From positions 267,005 through 331,004 of the forward strand of contig CAYPTU010000001.1 of assembly GCA_964413885.1 (NCBI GenBank): DNA of 64,000 bases, in the 5' to 3' direction. The notes under the pieces are model-generated. The model made no database searches. It saw only the letters and a list, made by a program, of their open reading frames with translations, and was not told the origin of the DNA. Source of the DNA: an uncultured Novosphingobium sp. (GTDB lineage Bacteria; Pseudomonadota; Alphaproteobacteria; Sphingomonadales; Sphingomonadaceae). This document shows positions 5,494 through 52,009 of this stretch, one piece after another. Made by a program: the position numbers and the translations under genes. Each line of letters opens with the position of its first letter. The stretch's first letter is position 1.

Positions 5494-8400
5494 ATGGCCT
5501 TTGAACGTTTCGTCCCGCTGCGCGTCTTTTCGAGCTTCACCATGCTCGACGGGACGATCGATCCCAAGGCGGCGGCCAAACTGGCCAAGGACCGGGCTTT
5601 TCCGGCCATTGCAATCACCGATCGTAACGGGCTCTACGGCGCGATGCTGTTCGCCGGGGCTTGCAAGGATGCCGGCATCCAGCCGCTGATCGGCACTTTC
5701 CTGGCCGTTGCCCGCGATGGCACGCCGGCAGGCAAGGATCCGGTGATCGATTGGCTCGGCCTGATCGCCCAGAACGAGACCGGCTGGAACAACCTGTGCC
5801 GGCTGGTCAGCCAGGCGCACCTGGGCCGGCCGATCGAATTTGAACCCCATGTCACCATGGCCGATCTGGAAGGCCACACCGATGGCCTGATCGCCCTGAC
5901 CGGTGCGGGTGAGGGCGCGCTGGTCCGCCTGCTGGCCGCGGGCAAGGGGGAGGCCGCGGTCGAGCTCTGCGCGCGGCTGGAGGGCCTGTTCCCCGGGCGG
6001 CTCTATCTGGAAGTGGCCCGCCGCAATGATCCGACCGAGGAAGCGGCCGAGGATGCGCTGATCGACCTGGCCTATGCTCGGAACCTGCCGCTGGTCGCCA
6101 CCAACCCGGCCAACTTTGCCGATCCGGGCGGCCATGCCGCGCACGATGCCATGCTCTGCATCGCCAATTCGACCCATGTCGATGCGCCAGAGCGTCCGCG
6201 CAGTCCGCGTGAGTCCTGGATCAAGTCCGGGCCGATGATGCGCGAACTGTTCGCCGACCTGCCCGAGGCGCTGGCGAACACCCTGGTCATTGCCCAGCGC
6301 TGTGCCTTCTCCCCGCCCAAGCGCAAGCCGCTGTTACCCAGCCTGGCGGGGGACAAGGAAGGCGAAGCGCGGATGCTGGTCGACCATGCCCGCGCCGGGC
6401 TGGAAAAGAGGCTCGCGCCTTACGGTGAGCTGGGCGCGGAAGAGCGGCAGACCTATTTCGACCGGCTCGACTTCGAAACCGACGTGATCAACCGGATGGG
6501 TTTTGCCGGGTACTTCCTGATCGTGGCCGACTTCATCCAGTGGGCTAAGGCCAACGATATTCCGGTCGGGCCGGGCCGCGGTTCGGGCGCGGGTTCGGTG
6601 GTCGCCTGGGCTCTAACCATTACCGATCTTGATCCGCTGCGGCTGGGGCTGCTGTTCGAACGCTTCCTCAATCCGGAACGCGTCTCGATGCCGGACTTCG
6701 ATATCGACTTCTGCGAAACCCGCCGCGGCGAGGTGATCCGCTATGTCCAAGCGAAGTATGGGGCCGATCACGTTGCCCAGATCATCACCTTTGGTAAGCT
6801 GAAGGCCCGCGCCGTGCTGCGCGACTGCGGCCGCATCCTGCAGATGAGCTATGGCCAGGTGGACCGGCTCTGCAAGATGGTGCCCAACCACCCGACCGAC
6901 CCGTGGAGCCTGCCGCGCGCGCTCAATGGCGTGGCCGAGCTGAAGCGCGAATACGATAACGATCCCGAGGTGAAGCGGCTGATCGATCTGGCGGTCCAGC
7001 TGGAAGGCCAGCCGCGCAACAGCTCTACCCACGCGGCGGGCGTGGTCATCGGCGATCGTCCGCTCGACCAGTTGGTGCCGCTTTACCGCGATCCGCGTTC
7101 GGACATGCCGGTGACCCAGTTCGACATGAAGTATGTCGAGGATACCGGCCTCATCAAGTTCGACTTCCTTGGCCTCAAGACGCTCTCGGTCCTCAAGAAG
7201 GCGGTGGAACTGCTCAAGAAGCGCGAGATCACGATCGATCTCGAAGGCCTGCCGTGGGACGATGCCGAGGTTTACGAGCTGCTCCAGCGTGGTGACACGG
7301 TCGGCGTGTTCCAGCTGGAATCCGAAGGGATGCGCCGCACGCTGGCGGCGGTGAAGCCAACCAACTTTGGCGACATCATCGCGCTCGTTTCGCTCTACCG
7401 GCCGGGTCCGATGGACAACATCCCGCTGTTCGGCCGCCGCAAGAATGGCAGCGAAAGCATCGAATATCCGCACCCCAAGCTGGAAGGCATCCTGTCCGAG
7501 ACTTACGGGATCTTCGTCTATCAGGAACAGGTCATGCAGGCCGCGCAGATCCTGGCGGGCTATTCGCTGGGCGATGCAGACTTGCTGCGCCGCGCGATGG
7601 GCAAGAAGGTCCAGGCGGAAATGGACGCCCAGCGATCCCGCTTCGTTTCGGGCTGCAAGGAGCATTCGGCGATTGAGCCGGCCAAGGCCAACGAACTGTT
7701 CGACTTGATCGACAAGTTCGCCGGCTATGGCTTCAACAAGAGCCACGCCGCGGCCTATGCCCTGCTGGCCTACCAGACCGCCTGGCTGAAGACGCATTAC
7801 CCGCACGAATTCTACGCCGCTTCGATGTGCTTCGATATGCATCAGTCGGAAAAGCTGGCGGTCTTCGTGGATGACATGCGCCGCAACGGCGTGGCGCTGG
7901 CCGGGCCCGACATCAACCATTCCGAAGCCGAGTTCACGGTGGAGCGGACCGATGAAGGCCATGCCGTGCGCTATGCCCTGGCGGGGATCCGCAATGTGGG
8001 CGAAAAGGCGATGGATGCGATCGTGGCCGAGCGCGAGGCCAATGGCCGCTTTGCCACCCTGGAAGAGCTGTTCCGCCGCGTGCCGCCGGGATCGATGAAC
8101 CGCCGCCAGCTGGAAGGCCTGGCCGGGGCCGGGGCCTTCGATGCGCTTGAGCCGAACCGCGCCAAGGTGCTGGCCAACGCCGACATGCTGCTGGCCGTGG
8201 CCGATGAGGCCGAGCGGACCCGCTCCAGCGGGCAGGCTGGGCTGTTCGGCGGCGAGGATCATGCCGCGCCGTCGCTGCGCCTGACGGAAACGCCAGCCTG
8301 GCCCCGCGCCGAGCAGATGGCGAAAGAGCGCGAGAACTTCGGCTTTTATTTTGCGGCGCACCCGGTGGAGCAATGGCGCGCTGTCGCCACGGCCAATGGT

Positions 8401-22287: not shown

Positions 22288-23546
22288 CCGATAGCGACGA
22301 AACCATCATCCGCATTGCCGCCAAGGGCGACGGCATTACCCCTTCCGGACGCTTCGCCTGGGGCGCCGCACCGGGCGATGTCTTGCGCGCCGACGGCGCG
22401 CTGGAATGGGGCCCGCACCACGTAACCCCGCCCTGCCGCCACTTCGCGCAGTGCGGCGGTTGCCAGCTTCAGCAGCTCGATGAAGAAAGCCTGGCAGACT
22501 TCGTCGCCGCGCGGGTCAGCAATGCGTCTTCCTCGCAAGAACTCGGCGCGGAACTGATCACCCCGCCGCATCTCTCGCCGCCAGCCAGCCGCCGCCGCGC
22601 TTCGCTGCGCGCGGAAAGCAGCCAGGGCCGGGTGGTGATCGGCTTCCGCGAAGCGCGCTCGCACCGGCTGGTCGAACTGGGCGAGTGCCCGGTGCTGCGG
22701 CCCGAAATCGTCGCAATTCTGCCGGACCTGCGCAAGCTGCTGATCAAGCTGGGGCAGGGGCAAGCGCCGAAAAAGGGCAAGGGCAAGCCGGGCAAACACG
22801 CCCATGTCAAGCTGGCCGCCGATATTGAGGTGACCGTTGCCGATCAGGGGCTCGACCTTGGCATCAAGGGTCTCAGCGCCGAGGGGTTGGCTCTTACCGA
22901 GCTGTTGCTCGATTTCGCGCGGGACCATGGCCTGGCGCGGCTTACGCTGGATGCGGGGTATGGTCCGGACACGGTCTGGGAGCCGGAACCTGTAACGGTT
23001 ACGCTGTCCGGCATTGCCGTACCACTTCCGCCCGGCGCTTTCCTGCAGGCGACGGCAGACGGCGAAGCGGCGCTGGTCGGGGCAGCAAAGGAATGGCTGG
23101 CTGGCAGCGCGACCGTGGTCGACCTGTTTTCTGGCCTAGGCACCTTTGCCTTCGCGCTGGCCGGGCCGGATACCAAGGTGCTGGCGGCCGAAGCAGACCG
23201 GGCGGCGCACCTGGCCTGCAAGGCGGCGGCCGGACGCACCGGACAGCCGGTTCACAGCCTCCACCGCGATCTGTTCCGCAATCCGCTGCAAGCCGATGAA
23301 CTCAATCGCTTTGCCGCCGTCGTGCTTGATCCGCCCCGCGCAGGTGCGCGCGAACAGGTCGAGCGGATCGCCGACAGCACCGTCAGCAAGGTGGTCTACA
23401 TCAGCTGCAATCCCGCCAGCTGGGCCAAGGATGCCCGAACGCTGGTCGAAGCGGGGTATGTGCTCAAGGAACTGCGCCCGGTCGGCCAGTTCCGCTGGTC
23501 AACGCACGTCGAACTGGCGAGCCTGTTCGTGCGAGAAGACGCGTGA
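22284..23546 (+). CDS. RNA m5U methyltransferase (RlmD/TrmA family)
   Basis: PPCRHFAQCGGCQLQ (Fe-S), FLQAT, VDLFSGLGTF, LDPPRAG and YISCNP. Confidence 0.9.
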   Translation: MTDSDETIIRIAAKGDGITPSGRFAWGAAPGDVLRADGALEWGPHHVTPPCRHFAQCGGCQLQQLDEESLADFVAARVSNASSSQELGAELITPPHLSPPASRRRASLRAESSQGRVVIGFREARSHRLVELGECPVLRPEIVAILPDLRKLLIKLGQGQAPKKGKGKPGKHAHVKLAADIEVTVADQGLDLGIKGLSAEGLALTELLLDFARDHGLARLTLDAGYGPDTVWEPEPVTVTLSGIAVPLPPGAFLQATADGEAALVGAAKEWLAGSATVVDLFSGLGTFAFALAGPDTKVLAAEADRAAHLACKAAAGRTGQPVHSLHRDLFRNPLQADELNRFAAVVLDPPRAGAREQVERIADSTVSKVVYISCNPASWAKDARTLVEAGYVLKELRPVGQFRWSTHVELASLFVREDA

Positions 23547-23860
23547 TGAAGTTCTTCGTGGTGACCATGACCCACCCGGACGGCCCTGGCTGGGGCGAGC
23601 ATGTGATGCCGCACGTTGAATATCTCAACGGGCTGATTGCCCAGGGCAAGCTGCGCGCCTCTGGCCCGGTGGTGGGCAGTTCGCTGCGCGCGGGCCTGTT
23701 GATTTTCACGGTGCAGGACAGGGCCGAACTGGATGCGCTGATTGCGGCGGATCCGTTCGCGATTGAAGGCCTGATCGAGGAACTGATCGTGACCGAATGG
23801 AACCCGCTGTTTGGTGCCTTCGCTGCCGAAGCCGCGCCTTACGCACCACCGGCCAACTAG
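23543..23860 (+). CDS. YciI family protein
   Basis: HVEYL...G.LRASGP and LIAADPF pattern. Confidence 0.75.
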   Translation: MMKFFVVTMTHPDGPGWGEHVMPHVEYLNGLIAQGKLRASGPVVGSSLRAGLLIFTVQDRAELDALIAADPFAIEGLIEELIVTEWNPLFGAFAAEAAPYAPPAN

Positions 23861-23870
23861 CGCGGCCTGC

Positions 23871-23906
23871 CAAAAGCAAATGGGGCCGGTGTCGCCACCA
23901 GCCCCA
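23871..23906 (-). terminator. Intrinsic terminator of a leftward (minus-strand) transcript
   Basis: Minus strand: TGGGGCTGGTG-GCGA-CACCGGCCCCA followed by TTTGCTTTT. No U-tract on the plus side. Confidence 0.8.
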
Positions 23907-24495
23907 CGCTACGCCTTCTGCGGTTCCAGGCGAGTTGGGCGATCGCCGTTCCGGGGTTTTCGTGAACAGTTGAGCCGCGGTGATGCGTTTCGGTCACCTC
24001 GCGTGCCATCGCACCGTGAGTGCGATTGCCTTTAGGGACTTGGCATCGTGATGCTCGTCGCATCGGGCCTGTTCCGCCGGGCCGAAGCCTGGCTTCACAC
24101 ACTGTCTCGCACATTCCGGCTGGCTCCAAAGAGCCGGCGCTCATCGCCCGGTATCGCTCCCGGCGTCCGGTCCCGTCAGGCGGTTGGTTCCGGCCCGAAA
24201 GCCTTTCCCATTCCGCCTGGCGGTTCCGAAGCTGCTTCCCGCCCGCCGTTCCGACTTTCCGTCTGCCTGACCGAAGCCACGCTTTCCATCTGCCTTCCCG
24301 ACTGCTGCGAAACAGCCTTCCTGACTGCGCGCCGCTCGCTGCATCTGCGGTTCGCGTGAGTGGCTCCGAAGAGCTTTTCCCGCGTGTTTTCCGACACTGC
24401 TGCGGGCATCGCTGCCAGCATCTGAAGGTTATGTTTTCCCCATTCCTTTCAGCGGTTTCCCACCGGAAGTTCAGGTTCGGTTTAACCTCCCGACA
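23871..24495 (-). ncRNA. Candidate large (~620 nt) structured noncoding RNA, family unrecognised
   Basis: No protein-like ORF. Multiple UUCG/UUUG tetraloop hairpins in minus orientation, about 19 GGAA motifs, an intrinsic terminator, and an upstream sigma70-like promoter. The 5' end is inferred from the promoter. Confidence 0.7.
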
Positions 24496-24500
24496 CCTGA

Positions 24501-24529
24501 AAGCTGCGCCCCAATCCTGAGTCGCACAA
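24501..24529 (-). promoter_or_regulatory. Putative sigma70 promoter with a GANTC (CcrM) site in the spacer
   Basis: Minus strand: TTGTGC (24529-24524), 17-nt spacer, CAGCTT (24506-24501). GAGTC at 24519-24523 lies within TGAGTCG. Confidence 0.55.
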
Positions 24530-24545
24530 GCTGGAAAATGCGGAG

Positions 24546-24578
24546 TTATCCACAGACGCCATGTTTGGCGGTGGATAA
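24546..24578. promoter_or_regulatory. Pair of inverted DnaA boxes
   Basis: Perfect TTATCCACA at 24546-24554. GGTGGATAA at 24570-24578 is TTATCCACC on the minus strand (1 mismatch). Confidence 0.7.
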
Positions 24579-24629
24579 CCCGGCCCTTGCAGTGGACAGA
24601 TTTGAGCCGCGCCTCGCCAGCGCGGATTT

Positions 24630-25844
<1,215 letters not shown>

Positions 25845-49960: not shown

Positions 49961-50041
49961 CTGCCTCGCAAAGCAGCTTTCTGGCGACAACAGTTCCGAT
50001 AGCTTGACCCACCTTTGTCGATCATTCAGCAGAGTTACTGT

Positions 50042-50305
50042 ATGAAACGACACCTTCAACGCGCAGCTGCACTGGCTGCACTGTTTTCTTCTACGGCTTT
50101 GATCGCCGATCCGTCTCCAGAAGAAATCTTGGCAACGGCATCTCGATACACCGTTAAGGTTCAGACCCTCAATCATCTAGGGTTCAATCAGGATGAAGGC
50201 GGCTCGCTGGACGGTACGGGGTTTCTGATTGATCGCAAGCGTGGCTGGATATTGACCAACGCGCATGTGGCAACCCGATCTCCAAGCGAGATTACTGTTT
50301 CGTTT
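50042..50305 (+). pseudogene. N-terminal fragment of a secreted trypsin-like (S1C/HtrA-type) serine protease
   Basis: Signal peptide MKRHLQRAAALAALFSSTALIA, then GTGFLIDRKRGWILTNAHVA (catalytic His). Protease-like sequence stops at EITVSF; no Asp or GNSGG motif follows. Confidence 0.75.
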
Positions 50306-50416
50306 ATCCCTGTCATCCATTGCGAAAAAACCACGCGCAAAAATATGATCGCCAGTTTGAGACGCTCCCACGGCACCGCAATAAACGCAGTCCTTGTCCT
50401 TATATTTCTTACTCAT
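50305..50416 (-). pseudogene. N-terminal fragment of an HNH endonuclease-like gene
   Basis: MSKKYKDKDCVYCGAVGASQTGDHIFARGFF (CxxC...T.DH). No second CxxC-N follows; the frame runs into the antisense of the protease fragment. Confidence 0.65.
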
Positions 50417-50428
50417 ACGATGCCATGG

Positions 50429-50617
50429 CTATGCGTTCGGAGTGTCCCGACCGTCAGGCTCCTTGGCTACGCCTTTGAAAGGCTTGTCGCCGCTCTTTAC
50501 CTCCATCAAATGGCCAGTATGCTCGTCGCGCTTCTGCCAATGCCCGTCAGGACGCTGAAACTGCGTCCGACCCGATACCGCGCCGCGACGGAAGCCATCG
50601 CCTGTATTCTTCGCCAT
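50429..50617 (-). CDS. Small basic hypothetical protein (62 aa)
   Basis: MAKNTGDGFRRGAVSGRTQF...HWQKRD..TG..MEVKSGDKPFKGV. Lies 12 nt upstream of the HNH fragment on the same strand. Confidence 0.75.
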   Translation of the reverse strand: MAKNTGDGFRRGAVSGRTQFQRPDGHWQKRDEHTGHLMEVKSGDKPFKGVAKEPDGRDTPNA

Positions 50618-50755
50618 GCTGTGCCTATCCTTTCAAGAACAAGGTTAGAGAGACATGGTATCAGCATTTTGTTTTACAAGGATATGTTTGCGACGAGCGG
50701 TTGAGTATTCCACACCTGTGAAGATCCGACCCAAAGTGTCTGGTCCAAGACACTT

Positions 50756-51748
50756 TCACATCACCGCCAGCTTCTGAGCCAGCTTGTAAGGTACCAAGTG
50801 CGTGTAACGCATCAGCATGCGTGGATCACGATGACCGCTGATCAGTGCAACCTCTGGCATACTCAAACCCATCTCAAAAAAGCGTGAAATGGCTTCGTGC
50901 CTCAGGTCATGGAAGTGCAGGTCTTTGATCCCTGTTTTGGCAATGATCCTGCGCCAACACATTTTCAATGCGTCTGAAGACACTTCAAAAACCAGACTGT
51001 TTCTGTGTGACTGCTTTTCCAACACGGCGATAGCGCCATTGGTAAGTGGAATAGTTCTGGCGTAACCATTCTTGGTTCGGGGTAAGTGGGCAGTGCGACG
51101 GTGCAAATCCACAAACCGCCATTCCAGTGAGAGAATTTCACCCCTACGCATTCCTGTTTCTAGAGCGAACAAAATCACGCTGATGACATCCACACGCCCC
51201 AACTCAGCCAATTCATCAATCAGCCTATCAAGCTCATGTTGAGAAACACGACGGTTGCGAGCATTGTTTAGTTTTGGCTTTCGGACTTTCGCTGCTGGAT
51301 TTTCCTCCAGCGCAAAGCCCCATTCATCAGCAGCGACATTTAGGGCGTGTTGAACCAGACCTAATTCACGACAGACCGTGCCAGCTTTAACGACCTTCAG
51401 TCGCTCATCTCGGTATCGGGCAAGATCGGTGACCGAAAGTTCTTCCAACGACAGGTCAGCCAAAGGCGCTCTCATCAGAGCTGCCAGCTGATAATGCTCA
51501 TTCAGCCAGCCGATCTTTTGAGAGCTTACCTCTTTTAGATAGCGGCTCAAAATCTCCCGTAATGTGACATTCCGTAAGTTCTGCGTTTGTCGCTTACGCT
51601 GACCAGTCTGTGTCGTGCGTTTCGCTTCCTCCTGATTAGCCCATGCGACCGCCTCAGCGTGTGAGGGGAAGGTTCGGCTGATTGCGGCGAAGCCTTTTCG
51701 GCGAATCTGAACGCAGTAACCGTGCTTTCTCTTGGCGATGGTTGCCAA
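50756..51748 (-). CDS. Tyrosine recombinase / phage integrase (Rci-like)
   Basis: Catalytic set intact: ETGMRRGE (R), TKNG (K), FHDLRH (HxxR), GH (H), RYTH (Y). Low GC; begins 186 nt downstream of tRNA-Val. Confidence 0.95.
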   Translation of the reverse strand: MATIAKRKHGYCVQIRRKGFAAISRTFPSHAEAVAWANQEEAKRTTQTGQRKRQTQNLRNVTLREILSRYLKEVSSQKIGWLNEHYQLAALMRAPLADLSLEELSVTDLARYRDERLKVVKAGTVCRELGLVQHALNVAADEWGFALEENPAAKVRKPKLNNARNRRVSQHELDRLIDELAELGRVDVISVILFALETGMRRGEILSLEWRFVDLHRRTAHLPRTKNGYARTIPLTNGAIAVLEKQSHRNSLVFEVSSDALKMCWRRIIAKTGIKDLHFHDLRHEAISRFFEMGLSMPEVALISGHRDPRMLMRYTHLVPYKLAQKLAVM

Positions 51749-51773
51749 CGCAAATGCCCGTGTTTTCGGTCAT

Positions 51774-51792
51774 TGTGATTTCGGTGTGATTT
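51774..51792. repeat. Short direct repeat upstream of the integrase (possible arm-type site)
   Basis: TGTGATTT at 51774-51781 and 51785-51792. Confidence 0.4.
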
Positions 51793-51899
51793 TGAGCATT
51801 TTTCACGGTGCGGAAACGCTGGGGAAGGGCGTGTCAGCAACCGTCTCGTCTGCTTATGGTCAAAGCAGAGTAACCGCTGATTTTCAGTGTGCTAGAAAC

Positions 51900-51925
51900 A
51901 AAAAACCCGCCGTTTCCGGCGGGTT
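51900..51925 (-). terminator. Intrinsic terminator after tRNA-Val
   Basis: Minus strand: AACCCGCCG-GAAA-CGGCGGGTT followed by a T-run. Confidence 0.85.
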
Positions 51926-51934
51926 CTTGGTGAA

Positions 51935-52009
51935 TGGTGGGCGTAGCAAGGATTGAACTTGCGACCCCTACGATGTCAACATAGTGCTCTACCACTGAGC
52001 TATACGCCC
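51935..52009 (-). tRNA. tRNA-Val(GAC)
   Basis: GGGCGTATAGCTCAGTGGTAGAGCACTATGTT-GAC-ATCGTAGGGGTCGCAAGTTCAATCCTTGCTACGCCCACCA; cloverleaf with encoded CCA. Confidence 0.97.

Follow-up and report, generated by a model that had tools for sequence, protein, structure and literature searches.

The DNA analysed here, a window of 64,000 nucleotides (nt) from an uncultured Novosphingobium sp., carries argG and a convergent YCII-domain gene and, between the two, a minus-strand element running from 24494 to about 23874 that is very likely an independent gene for a highly structured non-coding RNA of ~620 nt, a member of a family found in Sphingomonadales. The argG product was identified by its Pfam arginosuccinate synthase domain. 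A first-pass annotation of the sequence had proposed a stand-alone structured RNA of this size on the minus strand, and both the extent and the strand agree with our results: its end at 24495 coincides with the start that we place at ~24494, and a separate transcript is supported by conservation of promoter and terminator, by covariation that includes numerous G-U pairs, and by sharply bounded metatranscriptome coverage. The features of the locus, in coordinates of the window, are listed below.

23874-24494, minus strand: the RNA, ~620 nt, with its start inferred at 24494 +/- 2 from contig cover and promoter geometry and its 3' end in the U tract
23872-23907, minus strand: intrinsic terminator, with a 12-bp stem (23907-23880), a GCGA (GNRA) loop and a U tract
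24501-24506, minus strand: -10 hexamer CAGCTT, with CAnnnT invariant (C127, A128 and T132 of alignment A1, which holds 11 sequences)
24519-24523, no strand assigned: GANTC site (GACTC) directly after the -35, a candidate CcrM methylation or GcrA site
24524-24529, minus strand: -35 hexamer TTGTGC, 17 nt from the -10, with TTG invariant in A1
24546-24554, plus strand: perfect DnaA box TTATCCACA, inverted relative to the RNA; its minus-strand 9-mer begins 25 nt upstream of the -35 start
24570-24578, minus strand: DnaA box TTATCCACC, matching TTATCCACA at 8 of 9 positions and beginning 49 nt upstream of the -35 start
24592-24598, minus strand: distal weak DnaA-like box TGTCCAC, its CCAC core invariant in A1
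24607-24625, minus strand: boundary element, a GC hairpin right after the argG stop codon, probably the argG terminator, separating argG from the RNA gene
24630-25838, minus strand: argG
23543-23860, plus strand: YCII-domain gene

Comparison of the 11 argG-linked loci in A1 revealed that the invariant columns read TTG-N3-(GANTC)-N12-CAnnnT, a σ70-type promoter in which the -35 TTG, the 17-nt spacer and the -10 CAnnnT do not change. This composite pattern occurs once in the window, compared with 0.05 occurrences expected, and the boxes at 24570-24578 and 24546-24554 are the only DnaA-box matches with one mismatch or fewer in the 64 kb. Among the relatives, the position of the TTATCCACC box relative to the -35 is fixed and the perfect inverted box is kept as GTGGATAA or GTGGAAAA; the site equivalent to TGTCCAC is TTGTCCAC or TTATCCAC in Erythrobacteraceae. 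Box offsets from the -35 start (-25/-49/-59 or -21/-31) are constant, with 10-nt differences, within each subfamily. At the other end of the gene, the GC stem and U-tract claimed as the RNA's own terminator are present on the minus strand, where the stem at 23907-23880 is followed by UUUGCUUUUG. The 3' arm, CCGGCCCC-AUUU, is nearly invariant family-wide, and the two base pairs adjoining the loop covary. The boundary hairpin at 24607-24625 is preserved through compensatory changes in two relatives (L001 and L151). A T-run follows this hairpin only in the plus-strand reading, and on the minus strand an A-run precedes it; the hairpin may work in both directions.

The open reading frames (ORFs) in the gap had been judged not to be protein-like, and they are indeed unconserved: on both strands, all of them gain frameshifts or stops in relatives only 12% diverged (88% identical). 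ORFs broken in such close relatives rule out a coding gene. The RNA body consists of a 5' domain, a long irregular hairpin and a 3' domain, decorated by fast-evolving hairpins with UUCG or GNRA caps, as follows.

24421-24493, minus strand: 5' domain, with a closing helix (24493-24485 / 24429-24421) around a GAAA-capped hairpin (24465-24450), from RNAalifold, with compensatory changes
24321-24418, minus strand: long irregular hairpin whose internal loop, GGAAAACA / AACCGCA, is conserved and whose apical C(UUCG)G hairpin, GCUC-UUCG-GAGC (24363-24374), is variable
24269-24316, minus strand: two local hairpins, GCUG-UUUCG-CAGC (24304-24316) and GGC-UUCG-GUC (24269-24278)
24168-24228, minus strand: helix CGGAACCGCCAGGCGG / CCGCCUGACGGGACCG with the apical hairpin GGCU-UUCG-GGCC (24192-24203)
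24122-24167, minus strand: GGACGCC-plus-hairpin region, after which comes GGCUC-UUUG-GAGCC (24122-24135)
24008-24089, minus strand: three hairpins, GGC-UUCG-GCC (24080-24089), the conserved GAUGC-GACGA-GCAUC (24050-24064) and AUCGCAC-UCACG-GUGCGAU (24008-24026)
23912-23941, minus strand: pre-terminator helix CGCC / GGCG enclosing GCCCAACUC, the counterpart of the Erythrobacteraceae helix CAUCGGRYG / CRYCGGUG

All eight hairpins named by the first-pass annotation were read on the minus strand exactly where it had placed them. Its further point, that the UUCG loops lie on the strand of the terminator, was borne out for canonical C(UUCG)G hairpins, of which there are three on the minus strand and none on the plus strand; 500 dinucleotide shuffles gave a mean of 0.11 and a maximum of two, making these hairpins ~27-fold commoner than in shuffled sequence. 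Minimum free energy z-scores were modest for the minus strand (-3.15) and similar for the plus strand (-2.65). Because both strands score about -3, single-sequence folding separates the strands weakly and cannot decide between them, and we therefore relied on comparative evidence. The single-sequence fold was also rejected as a guide to structure since its long-range pairs are contradicted by the comparative data, for example by the conserved local hairpin at 24316-24304. The strand was fixed as minus by numerous conserved G-U pairs, which would become A-C mismatches on the other strand.

Pairing and covariation exceeded controls in two alignments. In alignment A3, which holds the 5' halves of eight Novosphingobium and Blastomonas RNAs, 94% of cells in the hairpin at 24418-24321 were paired, compared with 22-43% in slid controls; 14 of 34 pairs showed compensatory changes, covariation was 0.42 (controls, 0.08 or less), and the observed values were reached in 0 of 500 shuffles. 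Alignment A4, of 16 Erythrobacteraceae 3' domains, had 96% of cells paired, compared with 35-48%, and covariation of 0.26 against at most 0.06, with 6-7 double changes at pairs 95-157 and 96-156 of helix CAUCGGRYG / CRYCGGUG. Individual elements of the window RNA behave similarly. Helix CGGAACCGCCAGGCGG / CCGCCUGACGGGACCG is 96% paired and has a compensatory G-C to A-U change in L155, the hairpin at 24026-24008 has a compensatory change in L151 (AUUGCAC / GUGCAAU), and other self-complementary sequences take the place of the hairpin at 24316-24304 in L001, L151 and L130. The GGACGCC region is homologous to GGAUGCC followed by CCGGYG-CGAG-CGCCGG in Erythrobacteraceae, a block similarity judged by eye. 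In the soil subfamily (22 sequences), eight near-invariant blocks lie between variable UUCG-capped hairpins, indicating an ornate core with a changeable periphery and not a plain repeat array. A look by eye for K-turn and tetraloop-receptor motifs gave no convincing match.

GCGCCGGUGA occurs twice in the Erythrobacteraceae-type 3' domain (A4; L013:5665-5690 and 5770-5782). The second, downstream occurrence is the only one whose pairing with CAUCGGRYG has covariation in its favor; the first is located in the invariant hairpin CCGGYG-CGAG-CGCCGG. An alternative fold of this domain is conceivable.

Among 80 argG loci, blastn found a single full-length match to the window RNA, in Novosphingobium sp. 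APW14 (L001, 86%), and relatives were for this reason recognised by architecture and terminator pattern. By architecture, the element follows argG in Croceicoccus, Pontixanthobacter, Altererythrobacter, Erythrobacter, Citromicrobium, Blastomonas and a second Novosphingobium, and a degenerate terminator pattern recovered at least 120 metagenome stretches. In ~74 sequences, from genome loci and metagenomes together, a DnaA-type box, promoter and terminator are spaced 380-900 nt apart. Family members have in common one to three helically phased upstream DnaA boxes, a TTGNNN-N16-18-CAnnnT promoter, usually a GANTC, and a conserved GNRA-capped terminator, and the RNA varies in length from 330 to 830 nt, with conserved blocks and changeable UUCG hairpins. 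The window carries this same arrangement of DnaA box(es), TTGNNN(GANTC)-N-CAnnnT, a hairpin-rich RNA within 330-830 nt and a terminator of the form GGGGYYGGYR-GNRA-YRCCGGCCCC-AUUU. Its closest relatives are L001 (86-88% identical), L151, L130, L155, L181 and L184. Internal blocks differ between subfamilies; common to them are GGRACCGGAYGCC followed by a hairpin, GCC(C)AAGUC, the 5' end AUCGGRAMGG and the terminator.

Carriers of the RNA include Novosphingobium, Erythrobacteraceae, Blastomonas, and soil and rhizosphere lineages that are probably Sphingomonas; among those in culture are Novosphingobium sp. APW14, Citromicrobium bathyomarinum and Blastomonas marina. The RNA is missing downstream of argG at three Novosphingobium and Sphingobium loci (L002, L006 and L019), and other relatives adjoin a helicase-like gene, serC or an OmpA-like gene. 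Since many relatives do not lie beside argG, the RNA gene is autonomous. Nothing comparable was found downstream of argG in ~50 Rhodobacterales and Rhizobiales loci (the non-Sphingomonadales set, L029-L080), in keeping with the suggestion, made at first only as a possibility, that the class is specific to Sphingomonadales. The plasmid collection contained no match to the RNA. Viral contigs gave 86 pattern matches, nearly all to an unrelated phage hairpin, with the family terminator present only in L241 and L247; these two terminators are of Sphingomonas type and may be host DNA in provirus calls.

Three observations were made beside the family searches. About 70 IMG/VR contigs (within L201-L286) have in common a near-identical hairpin, CCGGGGCTGGCAGGGATGCCGGCCCCGG, which is unrelated to the RNA and looks like a conserved element of one phage group. 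A serC leader (RF00517, 47 bits) lies at L093:148-200 on the minus strand, upstream of the RNA gene in the hairpin-rich subfamily, and the RNA gene in this lineage therefore neighbours serC, not argG. In an alphaproteobacterial metagenome-assembled genome, tandem CCATGGTGGCT-like repeats with units of ~35-40 nt lie directly downstream of the RNA terminator (L014:5930-6210).

Transcription of the RNA was evident in public metatranscriptomes. In 16 of these the RNA formed a sharp block, with depth a few-fold to thousands-fold above that of neighbouring genes. Contigs covering 23909-24486 were present in eight metatranscriptomes (sea, river, lake, estuary, salt marsh and a 'viral' fraction); summed depth for the window RNA lay at 100-900 in four of the runs and reached as much as 98,000 in a river sample, compared with at most ~70 in argG bins and at most 0.6 on the yciI side. 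Depth was zero at 24493-24643 in the eight runs. The block is thus bounded at the RNA ends, with no coverage between the RNA and argG, in line with the discrete minus-strand transcript that had been predicted. Illumina adapter junctions at 24479 and 24484-24486 mark a molecule end 8-15 nt inside the predicted start, and in 5 of 5 adapter junctions read 1 was on the plus strand, as dUTP-stranded libraries should show for an RNA made from the minus strand. Other subfamilies showed the same pattern. For the soil subfamily in the rhizosphere, summed depth reached 1e5-6.8e5, with 670-1200 variant contigs per run and at most 92 in any flank bin. The Citromicrobium-type RNA had a depth of 9-170, compared with at most 11 in its flanks, and its block (5339/5350-5772/5785, with a predicted start at ~5332) was present in lake, marine and seawater runs and in a single-organism transcriptome, X88.

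Contigs from three runs end at 23909-23911, 2-4 nt short of the terminator stem, which is either a priming or assembly artefact at the stable 3' hairpin or a sign of 3' processing. Apparent joints inside the RNA in contig layouts were considered as splicing or deletion and rejected: they have only 20-30 nt on one side and were treated as cross-matches between related strains or repeated hairpin motifs.

We compared the RNA with known families using Rfam 15, whose 4227 models include tmRNA, RNase P, SRP, 6S, OLE, ROOL, GOLLD, HEARO, raiA and IMES. At gathering threshold, the only match in the whole window was a tRNA at 51938-52009, and at E <= 10 the only match inside the RNA, in a search of 23400-25000, was IRES_Bip noise (8.8 bits, E 5.3). 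A search of 20 relatives identified only the serC leader, outside the element, and at E <= 10 the best match in L135 and L013 was BjrC68, at 21.6 bits and below its 39-bit threshold. With no family matched by the window RNA or by 22 relatives, the novelty claimed for the RNA stands, as does the statement that it lacks tmRNA, RNase P, SRP and 6S signatures, for which there was no Rfam or ARAGORN match. ARAGORN found no tRNA or tmRNA in 23000-25500, two-piece tmRNA included, for which Rfam (RF01849) was equally negative; 6S RNA had no RF00013 match at E <= 10, and the comparative structure is multi-domain. The sub-threshold resemblance to BjrC68 (RF02353), a small RNA (sRNA) of Bradyrhizobiaceae, was seen on a soil relative and stems from a GC-rich terminator with a GCAA loop and U tail; only this terminator aligns, with the first hairpin of the model deleted in the alignment, and membership in that family was rejected. 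No published description of the RNA family was found in the full-text literature, in which subscription journals are thinly covered so that an earlier description is possible. On available evidence, the RNA apparently represents a new RNA class.

The strongest functional lead is the combination of DnaA boxes and GANTC in the promoter, which the first-pass annotation had not seen. In Caulobacter, genes under the control of DnaA and of CcrM/GcrA are recognisable by DnaA boxes together with GANTC sites in their promoters. GANTC is expected to be depleted where an active CcrM-type methyltransferase is present in the genome. The window contains 54 GANTC sites compared with 244.5 +/- 16 expected, a 4.5-fold depletion that fits an active CcrM-type methyltransferase in the source organism, and it is this depletion that makes the conserved promoter GANTC meaningful. 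At least 53 of 74 relatives have a GANTC in the interval from the -35 to the -10, in most cases right after the -35 and with C, A or T as the middle base; a DnaA-type box accompanies all 74, its presence having been a criterion for their selection. The promoter therefore has the motifs of CcrM/GcrA- and DnaA-controlled alphaproteobacterial promoters, namely a conserved GANTC in the -35/-10 region and a nearby DnaA box, and from these motifs we judge the chances about even that transcription of the RNA is set by DnaA and CcrM/GcrA.

Taken as a whole, the data are probably best explained by an independent Sphingomonadales RNA whose synthesis is set by DnaA and CcrM and which acts in trans as a protein-binding scaffold or regulatory ribonucleoprotein (RNP). 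DnaA bound upstream, centred ~60 nt from the start in an activator-like position, would set transcription together with the GANTC methylation state read by GcrA, and RNA synthesis would consequently follow replication, the cell cycle or growth state. The low U content (13%) and stable tetraloop hairpins would make the RNA resistant to decay and long-lived, which would explain its accumulation. Its conserved blocks and internal loops may bind protein or give rise to a compact, trans-acting fold, and the RNA would act neither by coding nor by cis control. The scaffold or RNP mechanism, taken separately, is possible but somewhat unlikely.

Among known systems, the large 'ornate' orphan RNAs of bacteria come closest. 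The Sphingomonadales RNA resembles OLE, ROOL, GOLLD and the raiA motif in its size class (400-800 nt), independent gene, multi-domain fold in which variable hairpins alternate with conserved blocks and internal loops, and high abundance with a function not deducible from sequence. Some RNAs of this type are described, in PMC12286853 and PMC9723947, as forming RNPs or homo-oligomers. In contrast to them, the Sphingomonadales RNA has no sequence or structure match to their Rfam models, occurs in another phylum and order, shows much faster turnover of peripheral hairpins, has a DnaA-box/GANTC promoter unique to it, and is not phage-associated (terminator in 2 of 86 viral-contig matches).

Several points weigh against the explanation of the RNA as a DnaA- and CcrM-controlled trans-acting family. 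Control by DnaA, CcrM and GcrA is read from DNA motifs alone, in which activation and repression by DnaA are indistinguishable. The case for homology between subfamilies comes from promoter, terminator and a small number of short blocks, the middle being unalignable. A covariance model of the Erythrobacteraceae 3' domain (R1) scores the window at 30 bits, and since it does so mainly via the terminator the match adds little to the proof of homology. Because GC terminators with GNRA caps are also found in phage contigs and in sRNAs of Alphaproteobacteria that have no relation to this family (BjrC68), some of the 120 metagenome matches are unrelated. The strand call draws on the logic of promoter and terminator, on G-U pairs and on a small number of adapter junctions, Logan contigs being strandless, and in library X88 the adapter orientation is opposite or unstranded. 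Contig depth is a rough and poor measure of expression, and the evidence for the RNA comprises sequence comparison and public metatranscriptome contigs.

An improbable alternative is that the RNA is a multi-site sponge of the CsrB/RsmZ type, whose many short purine motifs (GGA and CGGRA) would sequester CsrA or another small RNA-binding protein. The RNA resembles CsrB and RsmX/Y/Z in its enrichment of GGA motifs, its variable number of hairpin modules and its very high abundance. CGGRA is present in 15 copies, compared with 3.9 +/- 1.8 in shuffles (z = 6.2), or 24 per kb compared with 2.35 per kb window-wide, and the enrichment is strand-specific; GGAA is present 19 times compared with 6.2. 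The number of hairpins varies by genus, with 9-12 CUUCGG loop motifs in L093, L119 and L170 and six in L129. However, the GGA and CGGRA motifs of the RNA sit outside hairpin loops, at helix ends and linkers, and the loops themselves are UUCG, UUUG or GNRA, not GGA. CGGRA may simply reflect A-rich linkers that come after GC-rich helix ends; the motif may also be a protein site. Long blocks and internal loops are conserved within each subfamily, which sets the RNA apart from simple sponges, and a sponge of the simple repeat type fits poorly with this conserved core. Upstream of the promoter, DnaA boxes stand where sponges have a GacA/UvrY box (TGTAAG-N6-CTTACA).

We attach a similarly low probability to an RNA of 6S or Ms1 type, which would bind RNA polymerase and accumulate when cells grow slowly or are stationary; such accumulation would explain the dominance of the RNA in soil and water metatranscriptomes. 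Like 6S and mycobacterial Ms1, the RNA is very abundant relative to mRNAs, extremely so in environmental samples, and is a stable structured RNA with its own gene; it also has a long irregular hairpin with a conserved internal loop. As trans-acting RNAs that bind RNA polymerase, 6S and Ms1 are plausible models for the action of an abundant RNA. Nevertheless, no Rfam 6S match was obtained even at E <= 10, and the RNA is three times the length of 6S and is built of several domains, in contrast to one rod with a central bubble. The DnaA boxes upstream of the -35 also suggest expression tied to replication and not to stationary phase, a weak reading since the sign of the DnaA effect is ambiguous.

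Nor is it likely that the RNA is a long base-pairing regulator of cell-cycle mRNAs (dnaA, gcrA or ctrA), analogous to CcnA of Caulobacter and EcpR1 of Sinorhizobium. CcnA and EcpR1 are short base-pairing sRNAs of roughly 100-180 nt, controlled by CtrA or stress, with CcnA located at the origin. The Sphingomonadales RNA carries promoter motifs of the same circuit, the cell-cycle-type signature of DnaA boxes and GANTC, and has conserved single-stranded blocks. The alphaproteobacterial precedent comes from PMC8959179 and PMC4414408, in which CcnA and EcpR1 are placed in the DnaA/GcrA/CcrM/CtrA circuit. At 620 nt, however, the RNA is far larger, more highly structured and orders of magnitude more abundant than these and other known base-pairing sRNAs, and its boxes are for DnaA, not CtrA. 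No homology to CcnA or EcpR1 was detected, and the conserved blocks differ by subfamily, so no shared seed is evident.

It is very improbable that the DNA itself is the functional unit, as a DnaA-titrating or -reactivating locus (datA/DARS-like) or an origin, with the transcript as a by-product. In favor of this proposal is a mixed-orientation cluster of two to three DnaA boxes, conserved across genera and with no other good box anywhere in the 64 kb. However, there is no GC-skew switch, cumulative skew rising monotonically across 24 kb; the ~600 nt past the boxes are conserved as RNA pairing (G-U pairs and compensatory changes) and end in a conserved terminator; and the transcript accumulates massively. 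The origin in particular was rejected on the absence of a skew switch, linkage to argG and not hemE, a total of only two to three boxes and the lack of an AT-rich tract; sphingomonad oriC has been located at hemE, according to PMC5144681 and PMC4741004. A DNA role is thus largely refuted for the RNA body, and the DnaA boxes may have a second role as DNA. Least probable of all is a long argG 3' untranslated region, a fragment processed from one, or a small-protein gene, since the same-strand position directly downstream of argG in Novosphingobium and Erythrobacteraceae and the minus-strand ORFs of 67-95 amino acids are outweighed by the terminator hairpin after argG, the zero coverage between argG and the RNA, the RNA's own conserved promoter, its occurrence beside unrelated genes together with argG loci that lack it (L002, L006 and L019), and the breaking of the ORFs in close relatives, which together refute this reading.

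Elsewhere in the window, GC content falls to 0.51 at 50001-52000, compared with 0.60-0.68 in the remainder, beside the tRNA gene at 51938-52009 (minus strand); this stretch may mark where a genomic island has integrated.

New large structured RNA classes are rare in bacteria, and RNase P, tmRNA, 6S, OLE and ROOL/GOLLD each exposed new biochemistry. The RNA family described here spans a whole order of environmentally dominant bacteria, has summed contig depths of 10^3-10^5 in public metatranscriptomes compared with at most ~90 in any neighbouring gene bin, and, for want of a matching Rfam family, goes unseen by current annotation. Its reads are probably discarded or left unassigned in soil and water metatranscriptomics, which a covariance model would correct. 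The promoter design points to a definite regulatory input, DnaA together with GANTC methylation, and genetically tractable sphingomonads are available, among them Novosphingobium aromaticivorans, Sphingomonas melonis and Zymomonas. In its broadest form, which we offer tentatively, the finding would be an order-wide class of large structured RNA that, in soil, rhizosphere, freshwater and marine habitats, is one of the most plentiful transcripts Sphingomonadales make, is wired to DnaA and CcrM/GcrA, and has a conserved, possibly oligomeric three-dimensional core with no known relative, adding a new component to the cell-cycle or growth-state control of these bacteria.

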